NCBI GenBank assembly: GCA_042408215.1
Contig: JAYFMW010000006.1
Location: 608,001-672,000 of the forward strand
Length of the DNA: 64,000 bases
Direction: 5' to 3'
Source of the DNA: Microcoleus sp.
GTDB taxonomy: Bacteria > Cyanobacteriota > Cyanobacteriia > Cyanobacteriales > Microcoleaceae
The position numbers and the translations under genes are program-made. Below, piece after piece: positions 38,853 to 64,000 of this stretch. Positions within the stretch are counted from its first letter, which is position 1. Every line of letters starts with the position of its first letter. Under the pieces are notes generated by a model, which made no database searches, was not told the origin of the DNA, and saw nothing but the letters and a program-made list of their open reading frames with translations.

Positions 38853-42119
<3,267 letters not shown>

Positions 42120-42283
42120 TTCGCATACCTTATGAGATTTTTTGCTGTTGGGTAGTAGATGCAACAATGAGATTTTTTTTTTGAACCACAGAGAACACAG
42201 AGAACACAGAGTCGGAGAAGAGAAGAGAGGGTTTTTTCGTAAAGGTTCTGGAAGTATTCCTGTTTGACTAAGGTGAGTTACAG

Positions 42284-42492
42284 CAGTGTCAACTTAAGCC
42301 TAAAACCATTGATAAATATCGCTTTTAGCTAAGTCTCGATCCCCCTAAATCCCCCTTAAAAAGGGGGACTTGAAGACGTTTCCGGTTCCCCCCTTCTTAA
42401 GGGGGAGTAGGGGGCAAGAATGCGGGGGGATCTGGCGTTAATAGTCAAACAGCAGTCTGTGATTGGGTTTGACGTTAAGTTGACACCAATGG
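42284..42492. mobile_element. MITE-like element with GTGTCAACTTAA TIRs
   Basis: An inverted homologous copy lies at 46371-46578. Confidence 0.75.
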
Positions 42493-42565
42493 AGCTACAG
42501 CGCACCCTACCTTTAGATTTTTGGTGTAATTGATGCACTCTTAAAAACTGCAACATTAACCGCAT

Positions 42566-45500
42566 TTAGAGCGTTATTTGAGTGAAATCGCTAGCGGTGA
42601 GAGTATTAGTAATACCGTTCAACTTAGCCAACAATTGACCAGTGCCAGTCACACTAATCAAAGTTTGATTGTTGCTCGAAGTGATGCTGAGTTGATTGAA
42701 ACTCAAACCGGGATTCAACCCAATTAAATCCTCGCCCTTGCGGAAGTCAGTAATCGTATCAGTGCCCAGACTTTGATTTAGGAAAAACACGTCATTTCCC
42801 GAACCGCCGGTCAAAGTATCGTCCCCAACATCGCCGCTGAGGAAATCGTTGCCAGCATTTCCCAAGAGGATATCGTTGCCTTTACCGCCGTAAAGCGTAT
42901 CGTTGCCGGTGTAACCCTCAAGCAGATCGTTTTCATTGCCGCCGTAAAGCAAATCGTTGCCGTCGCCGCCGCCGAGACTGTCGTCGCCTTTGCCACCGTA
43001 AAGCGTGTCATTTCCAGCTTTACCAAAAATTAGGTCGGCATCCTCATTTCCAAACACAATGTCATTGCCATTTCCAGCATTAATTGTGTCATTGCCTAAG
43101 TTGCCTAAAATGTAGTCGTCGCCGTCTTCGCCCAGCAAGATATCGTCATCTTTGCCTCCGAAAATGCGATCGTTCCCAACACCGCCGGCAACAGTATCTT
43201 TGCCAATATCTCCTCTCAAAAAGTCGTCGCCGTCTCCGCCAACAACGGTGTCGTTATCTTTGCCGCCGTAGACGGTATTGTTGCCGGCACCGCCTTGAAG
43301 GAAATCAGTCCCGTCATTCCCGAAGATGGAATCATTATCGGCACCGCCGTCGATGTTGTCGTTGCCGCCCATACCGTAGAGAGTGTCATTCCCAGCAAGT
43401 CCGTTAATTGACTCATTTTGACCACCACCCATGATGAAGTCGGCAGTGTTAGCGCCGTTAATAGTTTGTTGGGGGGGATTGGGAGTAATGCTACTGAGGT
43501 CGAGTGTCGGAGCATTTAGGGGTTCGATGACGCTATTATCTGTGGCTGGTGTGGGTGTAGGTGTGGGTGTAGGTGTGGGTGTAGGTGTGGGTGTAGGCGC
43601 GGGTGTAGGTGTGGGTGTAGGCGCGGGTGTAGGTGTGGGTGTAGGTGTGGGTGTAGGCGCGGGTGTAGGCGCGGGTGTAGGTGTGGGTGTAGGCGCGGGT
43701 GTAGGCGCGGGTGTAGGCGCGGGTGTAGGCGCGGGTGTAGGCGCGGGTGTAGGCGCGGGTGTTGGTGTTGGAATTGGCGCGGGTGTTGGTGTTGGAATTG
43801 GCGCGGGTGTGGGCGTAGGCGTGGGTGTCGGTGTGGGTGTAGGTGTGGGTGTCGGAGTAGTGCTAAATTCAAAGGAACCACTGTCAACGATCGCCCCTGG
43901 AATCGTATCACCATCTTGAGGGCGAGCTACACCACGCTGATCTTTAGCTGGTGCGCCCGCAGCAATTCCTTTGTCAATGGCTGGACTTCCTGTTAGCAAG
44001 GGCCTGACAAAGGCGCCGTTGATATTTTGCAAAGGGCCTAGTAAGGGATCGGCGATCGTAATACTTGCGGTCGCATTATAATCGTTGAAGTTATTGGTTT
44101 TTTTGACAGGCCACTGAAAATTGCCACCTTGGTCAGTTAATTCGCTGCTGGTGTGTTGCTGAATCCCCCAATTATTTGTTCCATTAGCGGCTGTATTGTT
44201 GGCAAAAATCGTGTTTTTGACAGTGACAGAATTTCCCGCAGCAGCAGAGATACCTCCACCAACCCAATAGGCAAAATTATCAGCAATAGTTGTGTTAACA
44301 ATTGTTGTGGGGGCATAAAGAGCCATTGCACCGCCGACATTGCCATAAAAATCGCTAGTTCCAGTAACTTGATTGCCAGAAAAGGTGCTATTGGCGATCG
44401 TAGTAGGCGCATCCACGATCCACACTGCGCCACCTTGACCGGGGGCTTTGTTGTTAGCAAAGGTGGTGTTGGAGATAGTAAATCCCTTGTTAGCGCCGTT
44501 GTTCATTTGCACCAAGCCGCCTCCAACTCCGTCGTTACCCCCCGGTAGCGACAGAATTTCGTTGTCAGAGAAAGTGCTGTCTGCAACTGTTACGCTGTCT
44601 TGGGTGCCGGTATAGAGGTAAGCGGCTCCGCCTTCGCCTCGCCCTTTGTTGTTTTGAAATACGCTGCCGCTGATGTTAATTGTGCCAGAAGCTTCGCTCG
44701 GATTGCTGGCTCGATCGGTATAAAGTGCGCCGCCAAAACCCCTTAAGAAATCATTGGGCTGGCCTGTGGCGAACACGGCTGCGGTGGTGTCGTTGCCGAT
44801 GAATCGCGAGTTTTGAATGGTTAACTTGCCTTGAAGGCTGTTAATTGCTCCGCCGTTAATTCCTTTGTTGTTGGTGAAGTCACTGTTGGTGACTGTAAAA
44901 TTTTTGGAACTCAAAAAGCCGATCGCACCTGCACCGCGTTCATCGTTGGCTGCGGTGGCTACGTTACCGTTGAATTTACTGTTGGTAACAGTTAGAGTAT
45001 TGTTGAAATTGCCAAAAATTGCACCGCCACCTTTGTCGGCGACGTTGTTGTTGAACTGAACATTTTCTACTGTGAGGTTTACTTCGTCCGTTGTGCCGAT
45101 CGCCCCACCTCGATCGGTTGTTTTGCCGTTAGTAATAATCAGGTTTTTGACGGCAAAATTGGTAGAGGTATCAACATTAGCATTGACAAAAAACGCGCGG
45201 GATGCGTTGTTGCCGCTGATGGTTAAACCCGTTGCGGCCGCGCCGTCAATGGTGATGTTTTTGCCGGTGGGAATGTCTAGTTGACCGCTGGTGAGGGTGA
45301 TGGTTTGGCTGGCTAAACCGGGAGCAAAGGTGATGGTATCGCCGGCGGCGGCGGAGGCGATCGCCGCTCTTAAAGAACCAGCCCCGCTATCGTTATTATT
45401 GGCGACGACGATCGTAGCTAAATTCCCTTGGTAATTTGCCATCACATCGGCGCTCATCGCTAAGGGCGATTCAATTTCGCCCTTGGCAAATTCTAAATTC

Positions 45501-45973
45501 CAGTCGCCGCCACGGCCAGTTAAGTTGGTGGATGCTGCCACATCTGCCCCGGTTAATTCAGCAATGCGATCGACAAAATTAGCGCCTGTCCCCGATGCTA
45601 CATCGCAGCCGTAAAGCATAATATCTGCTTTTTCCGACAGTCCATTATGCCACTTTTCCAACTGGCTTTTGTATTGTTCTATGTTATCTGAACTCAGAGA
45701 AGTGTTGCCGAGTTCTAGATTCCCTGAATTCCCGTGAGAAATGATGTGAACAGAATCGATCGCCCCGTTGGTAGAGGCATATTTTTCAATTTCTGAGGTG
45801 ATTTGTTCGATGCCGTTTTTTTGGCGATCCAGTACGATTACCTGCTGGCCTGGTAGCACTCCTGCCACAATGGACTCGTAGTCTTCCACCCCAGAGTCAA
45901 TGAAGACTAAGGAACGCGGGGGGAGTTTTTCAAGTAAAGATTGTGAGTTAACTTGAGCGAACGTAGCAGTCAT
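42566..45973 (-). CDS. Paralogous DUF4347 / beta-helix / Pro-Thr-Ala linker / RTX protein
   Basis: Same architecture as the neighbouring gene, with a near-identical RTX C-terminus. Confidence 0.9.
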
Positions 45974-49664: not shown

Positions 49665-50087
49665 GAGTAGTCAGAAACCGGGTTTTTTCCACAAGACTCA
49701 TTACAGACCGAAAACTGCGAAAAACCCGGTTTCTTTGGTTTACGAGTAATCAGAAACCGGGTTTTTTCCACAAGACTCATTACAGCACCCAAAACTGCGA
49801 AAAACCCGGTTTCTTTGGTTTACGAGTAATCAGAAACCGGGTTTTTTCCACAAGACTCATTACAGACCGAAAACTGCGAAAAACCCGGTTTCTTTGGTTT
49901 ACGAGTAATCAGAAACCGGGTTTTTTCCACAAGACTCATTACAGACCGAAAACTGCGAAAAACCCGGTTTCTTTGGTTTACGAGTAGTCAGAAACCGGGT
50001 TTTTTCCACAAGACTCATTACAGACCGAAAACTGCGAAAAACCCGGTTTCTTTGGTTTACGAGTAGTCAGAAACCGGGTTTTTACCA
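49665..50087. repeat. About 79-bp REP-like tandem repeat, 5 full copies plus a partial one abutting the CRISPR array
   Basis: AGAAACCGGGTTTT...AAAACCCGGTTTCT units with near-identical linkers. Confidence 0.93.
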
Positions 50088-53000
50088 CATTCAATTAGTT
50101 TCCCCAACGAGTGGGGAGTACACAGACGATCGAGAAATATCTAGACGAAGCACAATTTAAGTTTCCATTCAATTAGTTTCCCCAACGAGTGGGGAGTTAA
50201 GACTTACACTGACAAAGATGCTAGTCATTTAATGTTTCCATTCAATTAGTTTCCCCAACGAGTGGGGAGTTTCGATCGCGCTGAGCCATAGTCATCGCCA
50301 ACCGCAGTCCAGTTTCCATTCAATTAGTTTCCCCAACGAGTGGGGAGCAAAGATATGATTCGCTATTTAGTCAGCGATAGGCGGTTTCCATTCAATTAGT
50401 TTCCCCAACGAGTGGGGAGCGACAGAACAAATAAGAGTTCCCAATTTGCACAACAGAAAAGTTTCCATTCAATTAGTTTCCCCAACGAGTGGGGAGCAAG
50501 CACATAACAGCCAAGGTAGCGCCCATAGGGTTGTTTCCATTCAATTAGTTTCCCCAACGAGTGGGGAGCGTCACAAGAGCTCAAGGTTATGACAACCTCG
50601 ACCTAGTTTCCATTCAATTAGTTTCCCCAACGAGTGGGGAGTTGTGGTATGTAGAGGCGGTAGCTGGACGTACTCGCAATCAATAGTTTCCATTCAATTA
50701 GTTTCCCCAACGAGTGGGGAGTAGTTATCTACGGAGGTGTGGAATGGCACCCTCGTTTCCATTCAATTAGTTTCCCCAACGAGTGGGGAGATATCGTTGG
50801 AAAATCTGGAAGAACCACCAGAACCAGACGGCGACGAACTAGACGTTTCCATTCAATTAGTTTCCCCAACGAGTGGGGAGCGAATTGCAGCCAGAAATGC
50901 AACTTGGCCCAACTGCAGGCAATGGAGTTTCCATTCAATTAGTTTCCCCAACGAGTGGGGAGTTCTGTAACGGTGAAGAAGACTTATACGTAAAGGCTAC
51001 AAGAAGGGTTTCCATTCAATTAGTTTCCCCAACGAGTGGGGAGGGGCGGTATGTATTGTCAGGCCTAGGCTTCCTTACTGACCTTGGTTTCCATTCAATT
51101 AGTTTCCCCAACGAGTGGGGAGCTTCCGCAAAACCCAATTTCGATTAAACACCCTAATTAGCTCGTTTCCATTCAATTAGTTTCCCCAACGAGTGGGGAG
51201 AGCACATCAGCAACCCCCGTAACTTGGTATAGCAACAACTACTGGGTTTCCATTCAATTAGTTTCCCCAACGAGTGGGGAGTCAACATACGCAACGAGCA
51301 GGGTGCCAAGCAAACCTATGTCTGTTTCCATTCAATTAGTTTCCCCAACGAGTGGGGAGACGGCCGTAAGATACGCTGATTTGTTGCTTCAAAAAATTAC
51401 AGAAGTTTCCATTCAATTAGTTTCCCCAACGAGTGGGGAGTTTTAATCCTCCCGTTCTTGTATCCCGATTCAGGATGTTTCCATTCAATTAGTTTCCCCA
51501 ACGAGTGGGGAGCAAGAATGCGACGGACGCTGGTGGGCATGGCTAGACGGTGGCATGTTTCCATTCAATTAGTTTCCCCAACGAGTGGGGAGCGCTGTCT
51601 ATCGTGTACAAAAGCGTGTAAAGTATCTAGTTTCCATTCAATTAGTTTCCCCAACGAGTGGGGAGGAATGAAGGACCTGATGGTAAGAAGAAGGATGGTA
51701 CTGTTTCCATTCAATTAGTTTCCCCAACGAGTGGGGAGTTGAGGTCAGTATCCACCCCATTCAGAGGGGCGGTACGTTTCCATTCAATTAGTTTCCCCAA
51801 CGAGTGGGGAGCCCATAGCTTAGTGAAGGCCGGCCCCAGCGAAGGTAAGTTTCCATTCAATTAGTTTCCCCAACGAGTGGGGAGGGGTGGGTACCTCGCT
51901 CAAGCCCATGGGTGCTACGGTTTCCATTCAATTAGTTTCCCCAACGAGTGGGGAGGTTGGGTACATGTAAGACACCACACAAACCCATGGTGAGCAAGTT
52001 TCCATTCAATTAGTTTCCCCAACGAGTGGGGAGCCTTCTTCGAGTCCTTCACTATCGCCCTACAAAATAAGGGTGTTTCCATTCAATTAGTTTCCCCAAC
52101 GAGTGGGGAGGAGTCTACCAATACCTTCTATAGAAGCACCATACACAGTGGTTTCCATTCAATTAGTTTCCCCAACGAGTGGGGAGATGGTTATCTTCTG
52201 AGGTTGGACAACAAGTAGAGGCAATGGGTTTCCATTCAATTAGTTTCCCCAACGAGTGGGGAGTGCCCGTAAGTCCGTGTCTCGCCGTACTCAATCCATT
52301 GTTTCCATTCAATTAGTTTCCCCAACGAGTGGGGAGCGCGTCAATACCAGTAAATGTATGGTATACACCCCTTATGTTTCCATTCAATTAGTTTCCCCAA
52401 CGAGTGGGGAGCACTCAGCTATATAGCGCTGTCTTCAAAGCAGCAGGCTTAGGTTTCCATTCAATTAGTTTCCCCAACGAGTGGGGAGAAGGAGTACCGC
52501 ATCTATGGCCCTGGGGAAGAGATGGTAGGTTTCCATTCAATTAGTTTCCCCAACGAGTGGGGAGCCAATAATCAAACTATCAGCACCACCATGAACGGTT
52601 TCCATTCAATTAGTTTCCCCAACGAGTGGGGAGCCAACCCTGATGCTCAGTGCAGCAACCACTTTCCGTTTCCATTCAATTAGTTTCCCCAACGAGTGGG
52701 GAGCTTGGATCAGATATCCGTGCTCCTCGCCGAGGAAGTAAAGTTTCCATTCAATTAGTTTCCCCAACGAGTGGGGAGTGTACAAATCGAAGATAGTGAC
52801 AACAAGGAAGGTTTCCATTCAATTAGTTTCCCCAACGAGTGGGGAGGTATTAAGACTGCGTTAATGGGGGAAAAGATTGTCGCAATTAGTTTCCATTCAA
52901 TTAGTTTCCCCAACGAGTGGGGAGGGAATGAATTAAAAGCGCTAACCGCACCCGTAGAGCCAGAGCGTTTCCATTCAATTAGTTTCCCCAACGAGTGGGG

Positions 53001-54762
53001 AGTATAGGAAAGCTAATAAATGGTCCCTATGCAGTAGTACGTTTCCATTCAATTAGTTTCCCCAACGAGTGGGGAGAAGATGACGGCAAGGCGTGGTCAC
53101 ACAGCACATACGCGTTTCCATTCAATTAGTTTCCCCAACGAGTGGGGAGAAGGCAAACCCCCACACCTCTAGCAAAGACAAGGGGTCTAGTTTCCATTCA
53201 ATTAGTTTCCCCAACGAGTGGGGAGGGCGGCTGCATTGCATGGATTCAATAACGTGGCCTTTGTCATCGAGGTTTCCATTCAATTAGTTTCCCCAACGAG
53301 TGGGGAGAGAATACCGAAATAACGACCGACATCCTGATACTAAAATTTCCATTCAATTAGTTTCCCCAACGAGTGGGGAGCCTTGTTAGTTAATGGCGCC
53401 ATTGAAGGTACCCAAGTGTATTTCCATTCAATTAGTTTCCCCAACGAGTGGGGAGGGTAACATTACCCGATGTAAGGGTATTAGTGGGAGATCCATCTAC
53501 TGTGCCAAATTTCCATTCAATTAGTTTCCCCAACGAGTGGGGAGTAAGAAGGTAATCAACAACAACCTAATCCCTGCTGCTATTGCAAAATTTCCATTCA
53601 ATTAGTTTCCCCAACGAGTGGGGAGTCTATCAACCCTTCATTCATTGAGACAGTCTCCCTAATTTCCATTCAATTAGTTTCCCCAACGAGTGGGGAGATC
53701 AAAGTAATCAATCATCATGGCTAACATATTCAATTTCCATTCAATTAGTTTCCCCAACGAGTGGGGAGTTGGCTGCTTCATCTGCCACTAACTCCGCAGC
53801 TAAAGCAGCATTTCCATTCAATTAGTTTCCCCAACGAGTGGGGAGGTAATCAATGGGGTAACGGTGCACGCTATCTGTGCTGCTAAATTTCCATTCAATT
53901 AGTTTCCCCAACGAGTGGGGAGTGACCTATGCAGACCTAACTAAGGTGGACCACACTGAAATTTCCATTCAATTAGTTTCCCCAACGAGTGGGGAGTGTC
54001 TCCAAGGCACGCCGTTGTACTCAAGTCTCTGCCGTTAATTTCCATTCAATTAGTTTCCCCAACGAGTGGGGAGTCTACACCCTCCTCGATACCAGTGCGG
54101 TGGGATATAAGGAATGCGATTTCCATTCAATTAGTTTCCCCAACGAGTGGGGAGGTCCATCGCTAACTTCCTGACCCCCGTAATGAAAGAGGGAGAATTT
54201 CCATTCAATTAGTTTCCCCAACGAGTGGGGAGGATAACATCGTAGATAAAGCCGCCCGTAAGGCTGAAGCTAAATTTCCATTCAATTAGTTTCCCCAACG
54301 AGTGGGGAGGATAATACCCCTGTACCAGTATCACAGTGGCTCTGTGGTAATTTCCATTCAATTAGTTTCCCCAACGAGTGGGGAGAGCAAGAAGAACGAC
54401 ACATGTCAAAGCTCCAAGAGGAAATTTCCATTCAATTAGTTTCCCCAACGAGTGGGGAGTTAACTTGACAGCTCGTTAATCGCTGAGGAGTTTTTCGCAT
54501 TTCCATTCAATTAGTTTCCCCAACGAGTGGGGAGTCTTGTTTTTTGTTTGTGTCCGAGGTGTTACCCTCATACAAATTTCCATTCAATTAGTTTCCCCAA
54601 CGAGTGGGGAGCACAATTGGGTGAGAATATCTCGTACACTCCCGAATTTCCATTCAATTAGTTTCCCCAACGAGTGGGGAGCCTAGGGTGGTGCCATAAC
54701 GATCTACACGGCAACAACATAGTCATATTTCCATTCAATTAGTTTCCCCAACGAGTGGGGAG
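50088..54762 (-). CRISPR. CRISPR array, 62 repeats / 61 spacers (manual count); 36-bp repeat CTCCCCACTCGTTGGGGAAACTAATTGAATGGAAA(C/T)
   Basis: Repeats are separated by unique spacers of about 32-54 bp. Orientation is inferred from the GAAAC 3' end, the leader beside cas2, and the truncated trailer repeat at 50088. Confidence 0.99.
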
Positions 54763-54949: not shown

Positions 54950-55231
54950 TTAGATAATCACCGACCCCGGCAACTCCGTGACAGGCGGGCCCACCCCCCA
55001 AGTCTGAACATTGCCCAAAGTATGCCCCGACACAGGATAGAACCTAATACTGTCCTCATCTAAATTGATTAACTTTCGGAGTCGCCGCTGGAGTTCTGCA
55101 AACTTCGCAGTTGGCAGCACACACTCAAAGGTAGAATATTGCACCCACTTGCCGTAACCTTTGAGTAAGTCATGCACCTTTTGTCTGCGCTTGTCAACCG
55201 GAATATCGTAGACAACGATATAAAGCAGCAT
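54950..55231 (-). CDS. cas2: CRISPR-associated Cas2
   Basis: VVYDI, VQYSTFEC and DSIRFY. Confidence 0.97.
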   Translation of the reverse strand: MLLYIVVYDIPVDKRRQKVHDLLKGYGKWVQYSTFECVLPTAKFAELQRRLRKLINLDEDSIRFYPVSGHTLGNVQTWGVGPPVTELPGSVII

Positions 55232-55234
55232 ACT

Positions 55235-56227
55235 TTATCGAATTTGATAAGGTTGATAAAGCTCAAGAGGATTGTATACAAACTGCTTGAAAGCTTTCAC
55301 CTGCTGGTTAAGCAAATCCCATTTAGGTTGAGTGTCCCCGGAATTATTAGTAAAACCCTCTTCCATCCGTCGCAGAAAAGCTGTCAAAAATTTCTGTCGC
55401 CCAGAATCATTGAGAAAACAGCCACTATTTCGGAAAACAAAATCTTGGTCAGCTTTCATCATGCCGTTATTGACAAGATAAAAAACCAAACTATCAATAA
55501 TCGGTGCCCGAAATTCCTCAATCAAATCCGAAGCCAAAGCCGCATGGCGTTCCGTTCCCTGATGCAAACAAGCCGAATAAGGATCGAGCCCTTGCAACTC
55601 AATCAAACTCAACAAATGATTCCAGAGAACTTGATAGCCAAAACTGAGCATAGAATTAACCGGATTACCCGGAGGGCGGCGCGACCTACCCACAAACACA
55701 AAATCAGGATTGCTCAAACACTCTTCAAAAGCCGAAAAATACTGAGCCGCCCCCGCACCTTCCATCCCCATCAACTTCTCAATAGTTTCAGCCTCCCCAG
55801 CTTTTTTGATTAAATGTTCCAAACAGTTAATTGCAAAAGCAATGACATCAGAAGCTTGTCGGCGCTGCTGTCGCATGAGGATCACCCTGCTGTTTTTCAG
55901 CTTAGCCTGCACAATGCGTCTGGCTACTTGCAAACGTTCAGCAAAACACAACTGTTGCTGATAGCGAGAGAGTTGTCTGTAGCCCCGTTCGATAGGAAGA
56001 ATCCGCCCGTAACAGTAACCCATGCGGGAAAGATAAGCAATGGGAATATTCCGCCACAGACAAGTTCTAATTGCTTGAGTTGTGACTTGAGACTTACCAA
56101 AAATCAGCAGTTGTTCAAGCAAAGGAAGCTGTATTTCACCCAGCACAGATTCGCCTTTTTTGATAACCAACATTTCTTGGTGCAAGGAAACGTAACAACC
56201 AGGTTGAGAAACATAAACGGTACGCAT
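55235..56227 (-). CDS. cas1: CRISPR-associated Cas1 (no RT fusion)
   Basis: GMEGAGAAQYF, NSMLSFGY and LASDLIEEFR. Confidence 0.97.
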   Translation of the reverse strand: MRTVYVSQPGCYVSLHQEMLVIKKGESVLGEIQLPLLEQLLIFGKSQVTTQAIRTCLWRNIPIAYLSRMGYCYGRILPIERGYRQLSRYQQQLCFAERLQVARRIVQAKLKNSRVILMRQQRRQASDVIAFAINCLEHLIKKAGEAETIEKLMGMEGAGAAQYFSAFEECLSNPDFVFVGRSRRPPGNPVNSMLSFGYQVLWNHLLSLIELQGLDPYSACLHQGTERHAALASDLIEEFRAPIIDSLVFYLVNNGMMKADQDFVFRNSGCFLNDSGRQKFLTAFLRRMEEGFTNNSGDTQPKWDLLNQQVKAFKQFVYNPLELYQPYQIR

Positions 56228-56246
56228 AAGCAATTATTGGGTAATC

Positions 56247-56999: not shown

Positions 57000-58496
57000 T
57001 TATTTTTGCAGTTCGTAACGGGCGATCGCGTTCACCAATTCATCATGTACTTTCGCCATCAAACTAGCTGATTTTAACGAAACAAAGTTTTGCTTTGAAA
57101 CGAAATTTAAACAGCCCAAAACTCGCGATTCCCACTTTTCTTTACTATCTGTATTCCAAGCTTGGAATACATCTTTTCCCTCCAAACCATGCAAAGAATG
57201 AAAAGTCAAATTTCTTTCACCTATGGTATCGCCAGCAACTATTTGAATGTGAGGGTTTTGATTCCATTTATCTCGGTCAGATGCTTCAAGTAAAGTAAAT
57301 AGTGCTTTACCAAATAAGCCCACATTATTGTAATCGCGATTTTTATTTGCATTAAACCAATACCGTAAATTCTGAGGCAAATTTACATCATGGATATATG
57401 CTGTACTTGGTTGCTTGGCATTAGAGTATTTAATTTGTGGCTTATACTTGTATAATGCCCATTCTTTAATCAATCCTTCCACAGCCCGAAAACTGTGAAA
57501 TAGTGCCTCAACAGTGTTGTCTTGTTTTAAACGAATCACGCCTAAATAAGCAGCCTCATAACCCATCCACCACCACTCATTCAAACGCTCTTCTGCAACT
57601 TCTCCCCTAGCCTTACCAAAATCTTCAAACTTAGCAAAATTCCACTGTACCGCCATTCCTAACAAATCGCGAATTTCCACCAATAACGGATCTACAGAAT
57701 CTTTCCAGTAAGGTTTTAAAATGAGTTCAACTCCCTGGTAGTCATAGCGCTTTAATAACGCTTTCGCCTCTTGGACTAGCATCCCCTGCAAATAAGTAGA
57801 GCTTTCTATAAAATCACCCTTCTCTGCTAACTTTTCTTCATACTCATTGCTCACCAAAAACTTGACTTTATTACCAAACTTTGCTAAGCAATCAAATTGA
57901 ACAGCCGAAGAAATAGCTGGAGTTCCCGCCTGATGGCTAACATAGACATTTGCACTTTTATCAAACTCTAAACTAGACAAAGCTTGCTGAACCAGAAACA
58001 GTGCTTTATTCCAATTATCTAATCCCTCATTTTGGGATTTTGGTTTCAATTCTAAGTAATCAATTGATTTAACTTTAGGAAATTTTCTCTCAAAATATTT
58101 CTCAAATATCGGCTGAAGAGTGCAAGTATCCTGCCAATAGGGACTTTTTTCTATCCTCCTGTCTTGCTCATCAAAAACTGCTTCCTGATTAGTCAAAATC
58201 ACGATGATTCTGTCAGGATTTGTTCTGCCTTGTTCTAGCAGCTTGGCAGAAAAAGCATCCAACAGCGGAAAGTGCAAATCCTCATAATATTCATCTGTCA
58301 ACTGCGTTCCATAAACCATCCCCATCGCTCTCGCTGGTACGATAAAAGGTTCGCTATCATCAGTATTAGGCGGTTTTGTAGGTGCAAAACGGCGATCGTA
58401 TAATTGACTTCTCACCTTTCTAAACAAAGTCCCCCAATTGTCATCAGTTTTGAGCTTGACATCGCTGTTACCAGTAGTCACAATCCAGATATTCAT
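57000..58496 (-). CDS. Putative CARF-like + HEPN type III accessory ribonuclease
   Basis: N-terminal IVTTGNSD strand-loop and VYVSHQAGTPAIS (CARF-like); C-terminal RNLTFH fits RxxxxH; immediately after cmr6. Confidence 0.6.
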   Translation of the reverse strand: MNIWIVTTGNSDVKLKTDDNWGTLFRKVRSQLYDRRFAPTKPPNTDDSEPFIVPARAMGMVYGTQLTDEYYEDLHFPLLDAFSAKLLEQGRTNPDRIIVILTNQEAVFDEQDRRIEKSPYWQDTCTLQPIFEKYFERKFPKVKSIDYLELKPKSQNEGLDNWNKALFLVQQALSSLEFDKSANVYVSHQAGTPAISSAVQFDCLAKFGNKVKFLVSNEYEEKLAEKGDFIESSTYLQGMLVQEAKALLKRYDYQGVELILKPYWKDSVDPLLVEIRDLLGMAVQWNFAKFEDFGKARGEVAEERLNEWWWMGYEAAYLGVIRLKQDNTVEALFHSFRAVEGLIKEWALYKYKPQIKYSNAKQPSTAYIHDVNLPQNLRYWFNANKNRDYNNVGLFGKALFTLLEASDRDKWNQNPHIQIVAGDTIGERNLTFHSLHGLEGKDVFQAWNTDSKEKWESRVLGCLNFVSKQNFVSLKSASLMAKVHDELVNAIARYELQK

Positions 58497-58498
58497 AA

Positions 58499-60250
58499 TT
58501 ATTCCTCAGTTGGCCAAAGTTTGATAAAGTCGCTCTGATTCTGTAAAAACTCAAGAAAATTCTGAGTTGTGTCCGAGTCATCAGGAAAAATCGTCAAAAG
58601 TTCTACATACTCTTGCCTTTTTTGTTTCAATTCTCCGGTTCTAAGTTTGAGATAGCGGGGATACATCCGATGCCAAATGCGACCAATATTATTGAGTTTT
58701 CCAGTCAAATCAGTTTGCTTAATAAACTGATTTTTTGAGTAGTGACCGTGAAACCAATTAATTGCTTCGCTGCTATTCTTATCCTCAGCAATTCTTCCCC
58801 AGACTTCCACTTTTTCTGGATGCCAGACTTCGCGCCAAGTAGTAGCATGATGACTCAGTTCTACATGATTAACTGTTAACCATTCTATTGCTCTCTGCTG
58901 ACCCTCTGCCAAAAATTTAGCAATATTTCTGAGGTCATCACTAGCAGCCGTGACGTACAAATCCTTTGAACTTTCATTAAACTTCCAGTGACAGCCGATC
59001 GCGGGTTTGTCATTTCTGTTAAAATACTCTGGGAAAAACAGGCTGTGATCGACTCGCCGCCACGATTTGCCAAAACCGCCGAGTAAGAGAGAAAATTTAA
59101 TTAAGTAAGTGACAAACTTTTTTAACTCCTTCTGGGGATAGGTATTATTCAGGCATAGCAAATCTAACTTGCCAGCTTGCAAGTCGTAGGTTGGCATCAC
59201 TACAACTTTGTTGCCGTTAGGCTTATATCTGTGTTCGCCAAAATCGAGTTCCTCAGCGGTAAAATTAATCCCCAACTGCCCGATAATTGCCCCTGTATCA
59301 TCGCGTCTTTCACCAATTCCTCCCCAAAGTTTCTTCGTTAACAGTTGCGCTGTATTAACATCCGTGACCCCAGCCAACAACCGTAAAGTATGACCCCGCA
59401 GGGCAGCTTTAAACATATTTGGTCGAAATTCTGGGGTTCTATTCAGCAGTTGGGACGTTAACCCGCAGCCGCTCAAATTGACAGAAAGTAAGATGCGATC
59501 GGCACTTTTTACCTCTGCCATGCGGCCGTAGCCTGCACTTACCCTAGAACCAATTCCGTGCCCTAAAGCTTGTTCCCAAATTTGCCAAATCTCCTCCCAT
59601 TCTTGTTTTCCAAGCTGCTTGTTGCTGGAAATGCCAAATTGTAATTGACACTGATAAAGCGAAATTTGCACGTTAGCACTGGTGACAGCATTTTCCATCA
59701 CTTGGCGTTTTTGTTGCGAGTGAACGACATCGACTAAACGCTCTTTTTCTGCCCAAGACATATCAGCAGGAAAGCCGCCGTGAAAGCGCAAAATTCCGGG
59801 TCTTGCACTACGCTGTCCGTCCTCTACAACCTCTCCTCCGCAGTATTCTTCTCGCTTTTGAGGAGGACACGATCGCCAGAAAGCGCCTTTCATGCTAGAA
59901 CCCGGATAAAATGGCAAACCTTTCGCACCAATTACGGGTCGAATTACGTCTTCATCTTGTCCGCTATTTGTAACCAAACGCCAGCTAATTGTGTATTGTT
60001 TTGTTTCCACTCCCCGGCCGAATTCAGGCATTTTCACGGGTGATTTAGTTCGGCCTCGCTGCCAGAGGGGAACGCTTTCATCATTGCTTTCGGGGACGGG
60101 AGGACAGGATTTTAACCACTGTTTCACCCAATCAGAAGCCGGGCCAGCATCGCCTGCATACTGAATTTTTCCTCTTCCAGCTAACTGTGCTTGAAACATC
60201 AAAGGAACGCGATCGCTATCACTCATCTTCTTCACCTCCATTATTGCCAT
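58499..60250 (-). CDS. cmr6: Cmr6-Cmr1 fusion RAMP
   Basis: Two RAMP halves: PGSSMKG...GIGSRVSAGYG and RPNMFKAALRG...GGFGKSWRR. Confidence 0.8.
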   Translation of the reverse strand: MAIMEVKKMSDSDRVPLMFQAQLAGRGKIQYAGDAGPASDWVKQWLKSCPPVPESNDESVPLWQRGRTKSPVKMPEFGRGVETKQYTISWRLVTNSGQDEDVIRPVIGAKGLPFYPGSSMKGAFWRSCPPQKREEYCGGEVVEDGQRSARPGILRFHGGFPADMSWAEKERLVDVVHSQQKRQVMENAVTSANVQISLYQCQLQFGISSNKQLGKQEWEEIWQIWEQALGHGIGSRVSAGYGRMAEVKSADRILLSVNLSGCGLTSQLLNRTPEFRPNMFKAALRGHTLRLLAGVTDVNTAQLLTKKLWGGIGERRDDTGAIIGQLGINFTAEELDFGEHRYKPNGNKVVVMPTYDLQAGKLDLLCLNNTYPQKELKKFVTYLIKFSLLLGGFGKSWRRVDHSLFFPEYFNRNDKPAIGCHWKFNESSKDLYVTAASDDLRNIAKFLAEGQQRAIEWLTVNHVELSHHATTWREVWHPEKVEVWGRIAEDKNSSEAINWFHGHYSKNQFIKQTDLTGKLNNIGRIWHRMYPRYLKLRTGELKQKRQEYVELLTIFPDDSDTTQNFLEFLQNQSDFIKLWPTEE

Positions 60251-60647
60251 TATTCTTAGTAGGTTTATAACGCTGAGTCCACCAAACCATACTGTCGCAA
60301 AGTTGAGTTAGCACAGCTATAGCTACTTTGCGCTGTTCTACGGGAAAATCCCACAATTTATTTGCCATGATTTTAATGGCTGCTGTATCGTCAGGACTAA
60401 CATTATCGTTGGGAATTTTAACGCCAGCATTTGCCATAATTTTAACTAACGCCTTCCAAGTATCCCGCCAATAATCAGCTTGATCTTTGTCCTTGACTAA
60501 CCGAAACTGTTCTCCCCAAAATCGCTCTAAACCATAAGCAACCGAAACACGCATTTTGTATGCTTGATTAGGAGCATCTTTTTTGTCGCGGTATTTGATA
60601 ACTAAATCGTGAGCCTCTTGGTCTAATTTGTAAGATTCCCAAGCCAT
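60219..60647 (-). CDS. cmr5: Cmr5 / small subunit
   Basis: 142-aa helical protein between cmr4 and cmr6; assigned mainly by position. Confidence 0.7.
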   Translation of the reverse strand: MAWESYKLDQEAHDLVIKYRDKKDAPNQAYKMRVSVAYGLERFWGEQFRLVKDKDQADYWRDTWKALVKIMANAGVKIPNDNVSPDDTAAIKIMANKLWDFPVEQRKVAIAVLTQLCDSMVWWTQRYKPTKNNGNNGGEEDE

Positions 60648-60650
60648 AAA

Positions 60651-61484
60651 TTATACCTCCTTTAAGGTTAGATAGCAGTGACCGAAACCTATTGATTCTA
60701 AACCGCCGAGATAAATGTCTGCACCACTAGCAGCACCAAAAGGTTGCCATGTCTCTTGGTTGTCTTTGAGGGCGATCGGAAATACTAAAATTGTGCCTTC
60801 TGGCAAAGCTTCAGTATTAAAAAAAGCTCCTTTTTTCGCCTTTTTTTCCTCTTTGTCTAAGGCTACTCGACTCTGGCGATATAAAGCCATATCGTGAATC
60901 ATGGCAATTTCATCATCAGCAACAACAACGGCTGGCAATTCCTCTCCTAAAGGAAACCAAACAGACAAATCCTGAGTTTTCTCAACTGTCAAAAAGCCAA
61001 AGTTAAAAAATAGCTTTGGTTTGCCATTTATGTCGAGAGCTTTTAAGGTTTGAGAACCTGTATAATTAGCGGGAATTTTTGCAGTATTGAGTAACTTACC
61101 ATCCTTTAGCTTGACAGAATCTCCAGCAATTCGCTGATAGCGTTTGAGCAAACGAGGACAAGTTACCCAGACAATTGGTTGACCGGGACAAAACACTGGC
61201 AACCATAGCAGCGAAGCATATTCAAACTTAACTACAGACTCCGTGGTACTGTCTGGTTTTCCTAATTCTGCTTCCTGACCGTACCATTTATTGGCTTCAG
61301 TTTCTCCCAGACTGCGGCGGATTTCCGATCGCAATCTCCCGCGAATCGAACTGCCGGGAATAATGCCAGTTTGGGTAAACTGGTCGCGGAAAATTAAGTT
61401 TAAGTTTCCGCTTTCTTCACCAGCCGTTGCTCCCACATGAACAGGAGCAAGGGTTTCAATAATACCGTAAGCTTTTTTGTACAT
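60651..61484 (-). CDS. cmr4: Cmr4 RAMP backbone
   Basis: PVHVG, IPGSSIRG and LGGLESIGFG. Confidence 0.9.
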   Translation of the reverse strand: MYKKAYGIIETLAPVHVGATAGEESGNLNLIFRDQFTQTGIIPGSSIRGRLRSEIRRSLGETEANKWYGQEAELGKPDSTTESVVKFEYASLLWLPVFCPGQPIVWVTCPRLLKRYQRIAGDSVKLKDGKLLNTAKIPANYTGSQTLKALDINGKPKLFFNFGFLTVEKTQDLSVWFPLGEELPAVVVADDEIAMIHDMALYRQSRVALDKEEKKAKKGAFFNTEALPEGTILVFPIALKDNQETWQPFGAASGADIYLGGLESIGFGHCYLTLKEV

Positions 61485-62479
61485 TATTCAACTCCTTGAA
61501 TTTCAATGGGTAAACACAAACCGCATCCAACTTGTTTCAGGCTAAAACCTTCTTTGGGAAACCAATCTTCAGGGAATTCCCACCAAGTTTTATCTAAAGG
61601 TTCTCTGAGAAGATAGACAGTTCCAGGCGAAACTGCATAGCGTCCCCGTCCCATTTGTCCTTTCGCGCGGTAGCGATAGGAAATGGGTTTATCTGTGAGC
61701 ATTTCCGGTCGTTTTTTCGAGAAATCTTCATTTTTGGGATAGCGGAATGAAAATTTTTTAGATCCCCAAATTCCCGGCGTAATTAAAGCAAAAGAACGCT
61801 GAATTGGTTGGCGTAAAAGTTTGGCGATCGGGCTGTTATCATCCAGTGGAAGACTCTTTATTTCAACCAAATGATTTTCGCCACCAAAGCGATACCAACC
61901 ATCTGCTAAAGGATGAGTTGAGAGATAAACCAGACAACATTCATCATCCATCTGCACGGAATTTTCCAGAAACAAACCATCTTCTGCTAAAGTGCAGCGT
62001 TCGTCATCTTTTGTTTTGGGATGCAAGATAGGGACGTATGTCCAAGGAGTATCAGCTGCATCGCCATTTTTCTTAATGGCAGCAGTCTTATTTCCCCAAG
62101 AATTAACGGTTTGCCAGCGATAATCTGGGTCTACATCATCAGATTCCCGATGCCACTTTCCTGTTTGTCTTTTCCATTCATCCACTCCTTTTTGAGAAAT
62201 AATTTTGTGCCAAGGAATGGGGACGTAAAAGTATTCAGGATCGTCTGATTTTGCCCAAAATGGACCAGCGACAAATAGGTTATATCTGAGTTCTTCTTGA
62301 GAAGTATAAGACCTAACTTTGTTGGCGCTGAAAAATAGACCGGAGAGAGTAGCGGCTTCTGGAGGGAATTTTGCCCCAGAACGTCCGACCAGATTTTCTG
62401 GCGATAAAAATCCGCCTGAACTGCCGTACATAAATCCTAAAGGACTTATAGTGATGAGATATTTGAACATAGCTGCCAT
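61484..62479 (-). CDS. cmr3: Cmr3 (Cas5-group RAMP)
   Basis: FPPEAATLSG, RFGGE, LITPG and YAVSPGTVY. Confidence 0.85.
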   Translation of the reverse strand: MAAMFKYLITISPLGFMYGSSGGFLSPENLVGRSGAKFPPEAATLSGLFFSANKVRSYTSQEELRYNLFVAGPFWAKSDDPEYFYVPIPWHKIISQKGVDEWKRQTGKWHRESDDVDPDYRWQTVNSWGNKTAAIKKNGDAADTPWTYVPILHPKTKDDERCTLAEDGLFLENSVQMDDECCLVYLSTHPLADGWYRFGGENHLVEIKSLPLDDNSPIAKLLRQPIQRSFALITPGIWGSKKFSFRYPKNEDFSKKRPEMLTDKPISYRYRAKGQMGRGRYAVSPGTVYLLREPLDKTWWEFPEDWFPKEGFSLKQVGCGLCLPIEIQGVE

Positions 62480-64000
62480 CCCACATTTATTAGGTCACTA
62501 ATCCAGTAAATAAGTTCATTAGTTGGTTCATTTGGAAAATCTCCAACGATATGCTTGCAGTTTTGTTCCAAATGCTCTCTGTCATTAAAGTAAAGTTGAA
62601 AAATAGTTAAAGCCAATCGGTCATCTGGCCTTTTTTCCTTGGGATTAAAGCTGATAGCATGACGATTTTTAAGATGAGCTAAATCGTTGTAAACATGAGT
62701 CCAATTAGGGAAAAGTTTTTTATCTTTCCCTTCTGATTCCCATTTACTATAGGTTTTACCATCGCGATCGCGATACCTCTTCAAAATATCTAGATAATCC
62801 CAAGGGCAAGTCCACTGCACAAATTGACCGCTGTTAAAGACTACTCGAATTGTGACTCTATTTCGCCCCAAACTTTTCGCCCGTTTTTCCGCTTCTCGAC
62901 AGTGTTGAAGAATATCTCGCTGCGGTACACTGTGACCAGCCCAAACAAAACCTACACTTAAATTAATATCCTGTCCGTGCTTTTTCCATTCATCGGACAA
63001 TTTCATTAACCATTCTAATGCCTCTATAGGTTCCGGCGGCTTTTCGGGCTTGGTACTGTAAATTACGCCGAGGAAATCGTCACCGCCTGCATAAACAACT
63101 CGCCCTAGGTCTTTGGGGAAATTCTTGATAAATTTACCGCCCCAATTCCGCATGGCTTCGCTGAAGTTTTTTAAACCTTCATCTCCTTTTTCTTTAGCAA
63201 TTTCCTGAAGTTTTTTGCCAACTTTATCACCATCTCCCATAAACCAGCCAGTCCAGTGTTCTGGTTCACGAATAATGTCGCTAAATGCTGATTCAAGCGG
63301 AGATATCCCAATGTTTCTGGCAATATCTTCGTCACGAGTTACCAATCGCTTAACTAACTCAGGAATGCTCAATCTTTCATTAGGTGCGAGAAATTTTCCT
63401 TCGGGTTTGCCATCTGGGGGAAGATTCTCTAAAACACAGGAGAGACGCTGATAGAAATCCTTAAGTTCAGCTTTTTCTGGATCGGATAGTTGCCGCCCTG
63501 GATTTGAATGTTCCAAACCTAAACCCGGCCAGGCGATCGCATCGGTGCCGGTCAAACTCGAACTGTCGCCAATCCAATTAATCGCCGTCCAATCGCGACG
63601 CAATTTGCGAGTCTCTAAATTCTTCATCGCACACTCTATGCAATCTCCGTGCCCCCAAAATATTTCCCAAGTGTACAAACCCCATCGCATCCACTCTTGC
63701 TGCCAAAAGTATTGCTCTTTAGGAGGTACTTCTCGTTCTATCCAAACTCGACATTCATTTAATATTTCTTGCCATGATTTCTGAAGGGTGTTCGTCACAT
63801 CATTCCTGGAAAATTCCCCTTCCCCTTTCAGAAGTATCCGATTGGGCATTCCTTTCTGGATGTTGGGGGAACCGGGAGAAATGACATTGAAACCTGATTT
63901 TTCGGCTTGCTTGACTAGCTTGTAACTCAGATAAGACAGAATTAGTGAAGCCCCAAATAAATCTCTGAGTTTACGAGATTTTTCAATAAAACCCTGGACG
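62446..64000 (-). CDS. cas10: Cas10/Cmr2 (5' end beyond the window)
   Basis: The frame stays open to the edge (VQGFIEKSRKLRDLFGASLILSYL...MPNR). Palm motifs MGDGD and YAGGDD. Confidence 0.95.
   Translation of the reverse strand, partial: VQGFIEKSRKLRDLFGASLILSYLSYKLVKQAEKSGFNVISPGSPNIQKGMPNRILLKGEGEFSRNDVTNTLQKSWQEILNECRVWIEREVPPKEQYFWQQEWMRWGLYTWEIFWGHGDCIECAMKNLETRKLRRDWTAINWIGDSSSLTGTDAIAWPGLGLEHSNPGRQLSDPEKAELKDFYQRLSCVLENLPPDGKPEGKFLAPNERLSIPELVKRLVTRDEDIARNIGISPLESAFSDIIREPEHWTGWFMGDGDKVGKKLQEIAKEKGDEGLKNFSEAMRNWGGKFIKNFPKDLGRVVYAGGDDFLGVIYSTKPEKPPEPIEALEWLMKLSDEWKKHGQDINLSVGFVWAGHSVPQRDILQHCREAEKRAKSLGRNRVTIRVVFNSGQFVQWTCPWDYLDILKRYRDRDGKTYSKWESEGKDKKLFPNWTHVYNDLAHLKNRHAISFNPKEKRPDDRLALTIFQLYFNDREHLEQNCKHIVGDFPNEPTNELIYWISDLINVGWQLCSNISSL

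Follow-up and report, generated by a model that had tools for sequence, protein, structure and literature searches.

A window of 64,000 nucleotides (nt) on contig JAYFMW010000006.1 of Microcoleus sp. (G000:C6:608001-672000) carries a type III-B CRISPR-Cas locus in which the backbone subunit Cmr4 has an asparagine, Asn29, at the position of the RNA-cleaving aspartate, and the large subunit Cas10 keeps its cyclase motifs and has no HD domain. The genes lie on the minus strand in the order cas10, cmr3, cmr4, cmr5, a fused cmr6/cmr1, csx1, cas1, cas2, and are followed by an array of 62 repeats. The locus is probably a complete and maintained III-B variant that serves as an RNA sensor, with cyclic oligoadenylate (cOA) signalling to the accessory RNase Csx1 as its only enzymatic output. 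An RNA-guided sensor of which cOA is the sole output is the best-supported model because the RNA-binding scaffold and the cyclase are kept and neither nuclease is present.

The combination of Asn29 with an HD-less Cas10 is a trait of the family and not a local defect. A scan of one genome per species returned 454 stretches encoding relatives, and the best 80 were examined. The Asn29 loop is kept in all 80 loci, the variants differing only at neighbouring positions, and it is thus not a product of chance. The cas10-cmr3-cmr4-cmr5-cmr6/1 genes are collinear wherever the contig allows it (Cmr3 in 80/80 loci, Cmr5 in 79/80, Cas10 and the fusion in 73/80 each), with cmr3 between cas10 and cmr4 in every locus, and this operon order is conserved across many cyanobacterial genera. 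Leptolyngbya boryana likewise has this operon, on pLBX.

Catalytic positions of Cmr4 and Cas10

The cmr4 gene (60651..61484, minus strand) encodes the backbone Cas7 subunit of 277 amino acids (aa), which reads HVGATAGEESGNLNLIFRDQFT (protein text HVGATAGEESGNLNLIFRD) and bears the loop GATAGEESGNLNLIFRD; the Cmr4 sequence quoted in the preliminary description of this DNA agrees with this open reading frame (ORF). The protein scores 94.9 bits on NCBIfam TIGR02580, above the cut-off of 87, and its AlphaFold model (predicted local distance difference test, pLDDT, 78) has only solved Cmr4 chains as its top fold matches. In phmmer alignments with solved structures, Asn29 stands opposite Asp26 of P. 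furiosus Cmr4 (4rdp, 4w8w) and opposite the Asp of 9arw, where 'GNVDLpIQRE' faces 'GNLNL.IFRD'. The Cmr4 family alignment (20 sequences, 56-88% identical to the query) was also compared by hhalign with an alignment of 60 Asp-bearing Cmr4 representatives. At a probability of 99.9, Asn29 falls on the invariant Asp column, with two extra residues in front of it in the loop of the window family and the following Pro deleted. An ungapped alignment places Leu28 instead of Asn29 at the Asp site, a residue that is non-acidic in both cases. Ten of the 12 invariant columns of the Asp-bearing alignment are retained in the family, and the two that changed are those of the Asp, replaced by Asn29, and of one Pro, replaced by Gly40. 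The catalytic Asp by which a type III-B Cmr4 cuts at 6-nt intervals is therefore missing, its column being filled by Asn29 here as in the 80 relatives. The preliminary description had placed an Asn at the RNA-cleaving site, and the phmmer and hhalign alignments and the 80 relatives bear this out. The comparison it had proposed with P. furiosus D26 and with cyanobacterial variants gives, at the sequence level, the same answer: the Cmr4 of the III-Bv system on plasmid pSYSA of Synechocystis sp. PCC 6803 is Asp-less as well.

To place this family among other Cmr4 proteins, 101 representatives were compared (one per 50% cluster, at least 230 aa, plus the query and the pSYSA protein). Their Asp column holds D in 77, N in 14, a gap in seven, E in two and R in one. 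In a quick maximum-likelihood tree, which is provisional and from which the fragment rows P0135 and P0137 were dropped, a branch with a Shimodaira-Hasegawa approximate likelihood-ratio (SH-aLRT) support of 99 sets apart 17 rows, all of them Asp-less; they belong to the window family, a small 'RGNNNP' family and the pSYSA-like family. The pSYSA system is reported to be active in interference (PMC12464536, PMC6546367), and with the 17 grouped rows this suggests that the Asp was lost long ago and that its loss does not prevent function. Elsewhere in the same tree, an Asn group of 'INLP' type lies among Asp-bearing sequences, so that Asn appears to have arisen at this site more than once. Metagenome loci related to the INLP group were classifiable in 75 cases, with D at the Asp column in 66, N in seven and K in two, and both of the INLP Asn loci with enough flank (2/2) have an HD-less Cas10 and SAVED-domain proteins nearby. 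Four loci (L090, L093, L099 and L108) represent independent Cmr4 lineages with Asn (INLP) or Lys (IKLP) at the catalytic column; L090 has a SAVED-PD-DExK effector and a Cas10 with GGDE, and L093 a SIR2-like protein and a SAVED protein of 1412 aa.

The cas10/cmr2 gene (62446..64000, minus strand) is cut by the window edge, its true end lying at the window-equivalent position 64032. The open stretch of about 517 aa up to the edge had been read correctly from the window, and the full gene was recovered from the assembly (L001:947-2533, minus strand). It encodes 528 aa from an ATG that agrees with the start of all relatives, and a GTG further upstream would set an upper limit of 538 aa. A stop codon precedes this GTG, and therefore no HD domain is encoded; the protein begins directly at Cmr2_N/Palm1. 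The preliminary description had left room for an HD domain beyond the edge, and the recovered 5' end contains none. The same holds for the relatives. In the 68 loci whose Cas10 match starts no later than query residue 4, the upstream frame is open for 0-40 codons in every case, and therefore none of them has an HD domain. Their Cas10 lengths range from 412 to 636 aa, nearly all being at least 511 aa, and the 412-aa protein of L076 is probably cut short.

The two-Palm architecture of a Cas10/Cmr2 large subunit is complete. PADLOC Cas10b (PDLC02051) matches with 726 bits end to end on its 479-position profile, and Pfam Cmr2_N (from residue 5) and Cas10-Cmr2_palm2 (residues 263-394) are both above cut-off. 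The AlphaFold model (pLDDT 85) finds Cmr2 structures at a fold-match probability of 1.00, including an HD-deleted Cmr2 and the 612-aa Cas10 of DtCmr. At the motif level the cyclase is likewise intact, as had been claimed for GGDD: GGDD lies at residues 316-319 (VYAGGDDFLG) and DGD at 267-269, and G316, G317, D318, D319, D267, G268 and D269 are all invariant in a Cas10 family alignment of 28 sequences. Among the loci with a Cas10, GGDD is kept in 71/73 and DGD in 69/73. The preliminary description also had the usual zinc finger replaced by DSSSLTG. Part of this stands, as conserved CxxC pairs are missing from the family alignment and the motif G[DE]SSSLTG varies little or not at all, features that fit the loss of a zinc site. 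The equivalence of the loop to the zinc knuckle does not follow, for in phmmer and profile searches against solved structures the alignments cover the N-terminus and Palm2 only, with the SSSLTG loop outside them.

Operon, arrays and genome context

The remaining subunits of the complex are all encoded on the minus strand. Cmr3 (61484..62479, 331 aa; PADLOC Cmr3 PDLC01640, E 4.5e-12), the small subunit Cmr5 (60219..60647, 142 aa; PADLOC Cmr5 PDLC01476, 212 bits) and a fused two-RAMP subunit of Cmr6/Cmr1 type (58499..60250, 583 aa; PADLOC Cmr6 PDLC01212, 702 bits over the whole protein) are recognized by PADLOC, and the corresponding NCBIfam and Pfam models either stay below cut-off or give no match. 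Cmr1 appears to be represented solely by the second RAMP half of the fused protein. By BLASTP, the fusion is collinear with the fused Cmr1-Cmr6 of pSYSA through both glycine-rich loops, and on this weak match (20% identity, E 0.001) it qualifies as a III-Bv-type fused subunit. A search with the single sequence or with a 23-sequence profile gave no significant match to solved chains. At window positions 59950-59980 (residues 95-105), the fusion carries a near-invariant NSGQD...IRP with an Asp five residues before the Arg, like catalytic Cas7 loops. The fusion varies more between loci than its neighbours do. In the operons compared among L005-L020, Cas10, Cmr3, Cmr4 and Cmr5 are 83-95% identical to those of the window; the fusion is 88-91% identical in L009, L011, L013, L016 and L020 and only about 50% identical in L005-L008, L010 and L012, which looks like two allelic forms swapped between operons. 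One internal stop interrupts the frame of the fusion in L032 and in L060, which may reflect a pseudogene or a sequencing error.

The csx1 gene (57000..58496, minus strand, 498 aa) encodes a CARF-HEPN accessory RNase, predicted to be a cOA-activated effector. The PADLOC profile CARF1--CARF_HEPN (PDLC01795) matches residues 1-495 with 527 bits, PDLC01508 matches with 368 bits, and the Rx4H motif reads RNLTFH at residues 428-433. Pfam and NCBIfam gave no match for the protein, and its atlas neighbours carry the Csm6_HEPN or TIGR02710 family. The protein thus has the N-terminal CARF and the C-terminal HEPN with Rx4-6H that define Csx1/Csm6. Among relatives, conservation is much stronger in the CARF half (residues 1-248) than in the HEPN half; tblastn matches about half of the Csx1 relatives in the CARF half only, yet by profile they are CARF-HEPN, with RNxxxH. 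A Csx1 homologue directly follows the fused Cmr6/Cmr1 in 67/80 loci, and most of the 13 loci without one are on contigs that end early. The preliminary description had expected defence to depend on accessory effectors, and this operon-borne Csx1, regularly found in the same place, answers to that expectation. A ring nuclease is not a regular neighbour, because tblastn with the Csx3-AAA of the genome found none in the 80 related loci, a search that divergent ring nucleases would escape.

Adaptation genes and arrays complete the locus. On the minus strand, cas1 (55235..56233; TIGR00287, 237 bits; PF01867, 298 bits) and cas2 (54950..55231; TIGR01573, 56.9 bits; PF09827, 83.9 bits) adjoin an array at 50085..54762, in which 62 repeat matches were found versus 0 expected. 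The degenerate repeat lies at the 50085 end, which places the leader on the cas2 side and means that the array, like the genes, is read from the minus strand. The short ORFs of 61-78 aa listed within the array (52606-54174) repeat the peptide HSISFPNEWG/PHSLGKLIEWK, which is the translated repeat, and are not genes. Just beyond the window lies a WYL/CARF-type regulator, divergent from the cas operon (L001:2785-3963). Upstream of it sits a second array of 28 identical repeats (G000:C6:674137-676267, window-equivalent approximately 66137-68267) with the same repeat as the 62-repeat array, so that the two arrays flank the cas operon. A third, degenerate array of five repeats is found on another contig (G000:C20:287433-287777). 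All ORFs of the locus are intact. With the arrays of 62 and 28 repeats and the 454 related stretches in species representatives, the system looks maintained.

Maturation of the CRISPR RNAs (crRNAs) is likely to be Cas6-independent, because cas6 is not in the locus and the repeat fold matches that of pSYSA CRISPR3. The repeat RNA folds into a stem-loop (nt 2-18) followed by a single-stranded tail (nt 19-36) at -9.4 kcal/mol, and the RNase E-processed CRISPR3 repeat has been described with the same layout (PMC12464536). Cas6 models of Pfam, NCBIfam and PADLOC match none of the operon proteins, and tblastn with the Cas6 of the genome's type III-A system found none in the 80 related loci. Pfam Cas6_C gave nothing across the genome, not even in the III-A locus, where PADLOC annotates a Cas6.

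Two further type III systems are present in the genome. A paralogous module on contig C30 (L085, G000:C30:148000-167000) comprises upstream Csx3-AAA and HTH-WYL genes, a Cas10b of 605 aa, Cmr3, Cmr4 (GEETGNLNL), Cmr5 and a 573-aa fused Cmr6. It has no csx1 behind it, and a cytosine methyltransferase is encoded in its vicinity. On contig C20, a canonical type III-A locus (L086, G000:C20:520000-539000) encodes a Cas10a of 774 aa, Csm2-5, a Cas6 named by PADLOC and its own CARF-HEPN Csx1, and its Csm3 retains the catalytic Asp (GLDKAVVRD). Cross-talk through cOA between the III-A and III-B systems is possible.

In four RNA-library runs of one study, contigs 90-99% alike cover cas10-cmr3-cmr4-cmr5 and the cas2/array edge, and skip the middle part of the fused cmr6/cmr1. 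As these contigs come from metatranscriptome relatives, may include DNA carry-over and carry no meaning in the parts that they leave uncovered, they are a weak hint of expression. The genes flanking the locus are unrelated to CRISPR and encode a glycosyltransferase, a hybrid histidine kinase and RTX-repeat proteins. Two adjoining large paralogues at 38853-45973 (1104 and 1135 aa) have an N-terminal DUF4347 and C-terminal RTX calcium-binding repeats.

Proposed signalling output and alternative readings

In the textbook account, Cas7 acts as the timer of Cas10, which is turned off when the target RNA is cleaved. The Cmr4 Asp has been reported to cleave the bound target at 6-nt spacing, and the cyclase to shut down after the target is degraded (PMC4762429, PMC7192623, PMC9676260). 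In the P. furiosus D26N mutant, target cleavage is reported to be gone, and binding, DNase activity and cOA synthesis to persist (PMC4762429, PMC7192623). By analogy with this mutant, which binds and does not cut, the earlier proposal that the complex may hold target RNA without shredding it is supported.

In the proposed mechanism, crRNAs would be matured in the absence of Cas6, probably through the RNase E of the host, which is the route in the Synechocystis III-Bv system, and would bring the complex to complementary invader transcripts. Binding would switch on the Cas10 cyclase (DGD and GGDD), and the cyclic oligoadenylate, acting on the CARF domain of the adjoining Csx1, would turn on its HEPN RNase and provide immunity by growth arrest or abortive infection. 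Because the target would be held and not cut, signalling may persist until the RNA or the messenger is removed otherwise. The preliminary description went further and held that the normal off-switch would be lacking. The Cmr4 Asp is indeed gone, but the statement is too strong: candidates for ending the signal include the trimming of exposed target by Csx1 or host RNases, the Csx3-AAA ring-nuclease candidate at the paralogous module elsewhere in the genome, and dissociation of the target.

Several points weigh against signalling as the sole output. The loop around Asn29 is the best-conserved part of Cmr4, with 15 of the 17 positions 18-34 at least 90% conserved versus approximately 38% of all positions, which is what a working site would look like. 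The AlphaFold pLDDT falls below 50 over the active-site loop (residues 19-29), and also over the thumb (203-224), and Glu23 or Glu24, in a loop two residues longer than the canonical one, could in principle reach the scissile phosphate. The loss of Cmr4 cleavage is argued from one archaeal mutant, P. furiosus D26N, and from homology, and this strain was reportedly obtainable only with HD and Csx1 also removed (PMC7192623). Uncut target together with a live Csx1 may therefore be toxic, so that an unseen control would have to exist here. An Asp that hardly varies (GQD...IRP) lies in the corresponding stretch of the first RAMP domain of the fused Cmr6/Cmr1. Finally, HD loss is frequent within this section of III-B and not specific to Asn, as 24 of 24 Asp-bearing metagenome relatives are HD-less, and on pSYSA an HD-bearing Cas10 goes with a Cmr4 that lacks the Asp. 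A tie between HD loss and the Asn lineages was ruled out on these grounds, and the two losses are not mechanistically coupled.

The first of these points leads to an alternative in which Cmr4 still cuts its target by means of a relocated residue, either Glu23/Glu24 or Asn27/Asn29 placing a metal or water, so that the off-switch would be intact and the re-wired active site would belong to an otherwise ordinary HD-less III-B system. The motif GEE[ST]GNLNL is invariant or nearly so in the 80 loci and also in the closest 120 homologues from the database, despite overall identity down to 66%. The loop is longer by two residues and lacks the Pro, and therefore its geometry differs from that of canonical Cmr4, and Glu occupies the Asp column in two of the 101 representatives, so that an acidic variant is tolerated. 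Neither glutamate is a new acidic residue, however, because the site aligned with Glu24 is already Glu in P. furiosus (GTELGVVD), whose D26N protein is nevertheless reported dead (PMC4762429), and Glu23 aligns with the usual Gln of canonical Cmr4s. The three Asp-less families (EESGNLNL, TQEGNLLG and SSSRGNNNP) share no acidic position, and the recurrence of Asn as the replacement (14/101 representatives, 7/75 metagenome relatives) fits a site whose shape is kept and whose chemistry is lost. A re-wired Cmr4 is therefore considered unlikely.

A more doubtful alternative assigns a cut at one site to the fused Cmr6/Cmr1 cap instead of Cmr4, so that the off-switch would work more slowly and through this single cut. 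In its first RAMP domain, the fusion reads NSGQD[EDAV][DG].IRP...PG[SA]SMKG, and Asp99, conserved in at least 90% of the 23 aligned sequences, precedes the Arg by five residues, as the catalytic Asp does in Cmr4. The spacing to PGSS, however, is two residues longer than in Cmr4, and by that anchor the aligned residue would be D/G101, which is variable; at the Asp99 and D/G101 positions, the pSYSA fusion carries Pro or Ser. The fusion matches no solved chain by sequence or family profile, and its equivalence with the Cmr4 site is putative. Neither Cmr6 nor Cmr1 is known to be catalytic, which also counts against cleavage by the cap, and this alternative is regarded as quite improbable.

Least probable is that the module is a decaying, non-defence remnant or only a regulator, with Asn as a disabling mutation: the canonical III-A system (Csm3 Asp, Cas6, own Csx1) could make it redundant and the fused cmr6 of L032 and L060 has an internal stop, but such decay is unlikely given that the window module genes are all intact, that arrays of 62 and 28 repeats and a cas1-cas2 pair adjoin them, that operon order and the invariant Cmr4 loop are conserved in 80 loci of many cyanobacterial genera, that a paralogous second copy exists in the same genome, and that the related Synechocystis III-Bv is reported to interfere with plasmids (PMC6546367).

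Signalling to Csx1 thus remains the favoured reading of the window locus, and it can be extended beyond this family. The window family, the Synechocystis III-Bv family and the third, RGNNNP family may form a clade, both large and old, whose complexes are RNA sensors with a naturally dead RNase and would hold on to invader transcripts uncut. Its HD-less branch would have no nuclease of its own and would rely on pure second-messenger immunity, with termination outsourced to Csx1, ring nucleases or host RNases such as the RNase E/J that would already serve in crRNA maturation. Because the INLP lineage pairs with SAVED effectors, the same design would have arisen at least twice independently. The case for this wider hypothesis appears evenly balanced. 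If it is true that a widespread natural family lacks the cleaving residue and the HD domain and has a live Csx1, type III immunity can run on signalling alone, and the question becomes how the alarm ends without killing every cell that meets a transcript. Complexes of this kind would also offer ready-made RNA sensors that amplify their signal and leave the RNA intact. The hypothesis predicts that the Synechocystis III-Bv complex leaves its RNA target uncut.

Comparison with known systems

Literature searches, with supplementary tables outside their scope, returned no paper noting an Asp-less Cmr4 in III-B or III-Bv and none describing an HD-less, Asp-less, Csx1-linked III-B family. Among known systems, the III-Bv of Synechocystis sp. 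PCC 6803 (CRISPR3, pSYSA) resembles the window locus in the order cas10-cmr3-cmr4-cmr5-like-fused cmr6/cmr1, in having no cas6 in the locus, in a repeat that forms a stem-loop on its 5' side and ends in a single-stranded tail, and in an Asp-less Cmr4 (QEGNLLGIARE) that groups with the window family in the quick tree. Csx3-AAA is described with pSYSA CRISPR3 (PMC9676260) and is also found at the paralogous C30 module of the window genome. In contrast, the pSYSA Cmr4 is only 28% identical to that of the window, and the pSYSA Cas10 is a 979-aa protein with an N-terminal HD-motif region of approximately 220 aa (LLHDPA); by BLASTP, the window Cas10 aligns from pSYSA residue 220 on, just past this region. 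The csx1 CARF-HEPN gene inside the window operon is a further difference, and PADLOC uses different profiles for the two sets. The long HD-bearing Cas10 expected of a close III-Bv relative is thus absent. With the 28% identity of Cmr4, the Cas10 of 528 versus 979 aa and the missing HD region, the window system is a sister family of III-Bv and not a member of it.

HD-less signalling III-B systems, such as VmeCmr of Vibrio metoecus with NucC, share with the window locus an HD-less Cas10, a kept cyclase and a cOA-activated effector (PMC8682760), and the HD-less Cas10 of DtCmr (9arw, 612 aa) is the best fold and sequence match of the window Cas10. Those systems keep the Cmr4 Asp, whereas the window family has lost it and has Csx1 instead of NucC as its effector. 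The P. furiosus D26N mutant carries the same residue at the same aligned position, and its target is reported to be bound and uncut and cOA to be made (PMC4762429, PMC7192623). It is, however, an engineered archaeal complex with an HD-bearing Cmr2, while the state found in the window is natural, widespread and co-inherited with Csx1. Subtypes III-G and III-H have been described without conserved catalytic aspartates in Cas7, but with an apparently active HD nuclease and predicted DNA cleavage, and without adaptation modules (PMC12669027). The window locus presents the opposite combination, having no HD domain, an intact cyclase, a cas1-cas2 pair and large arrays.

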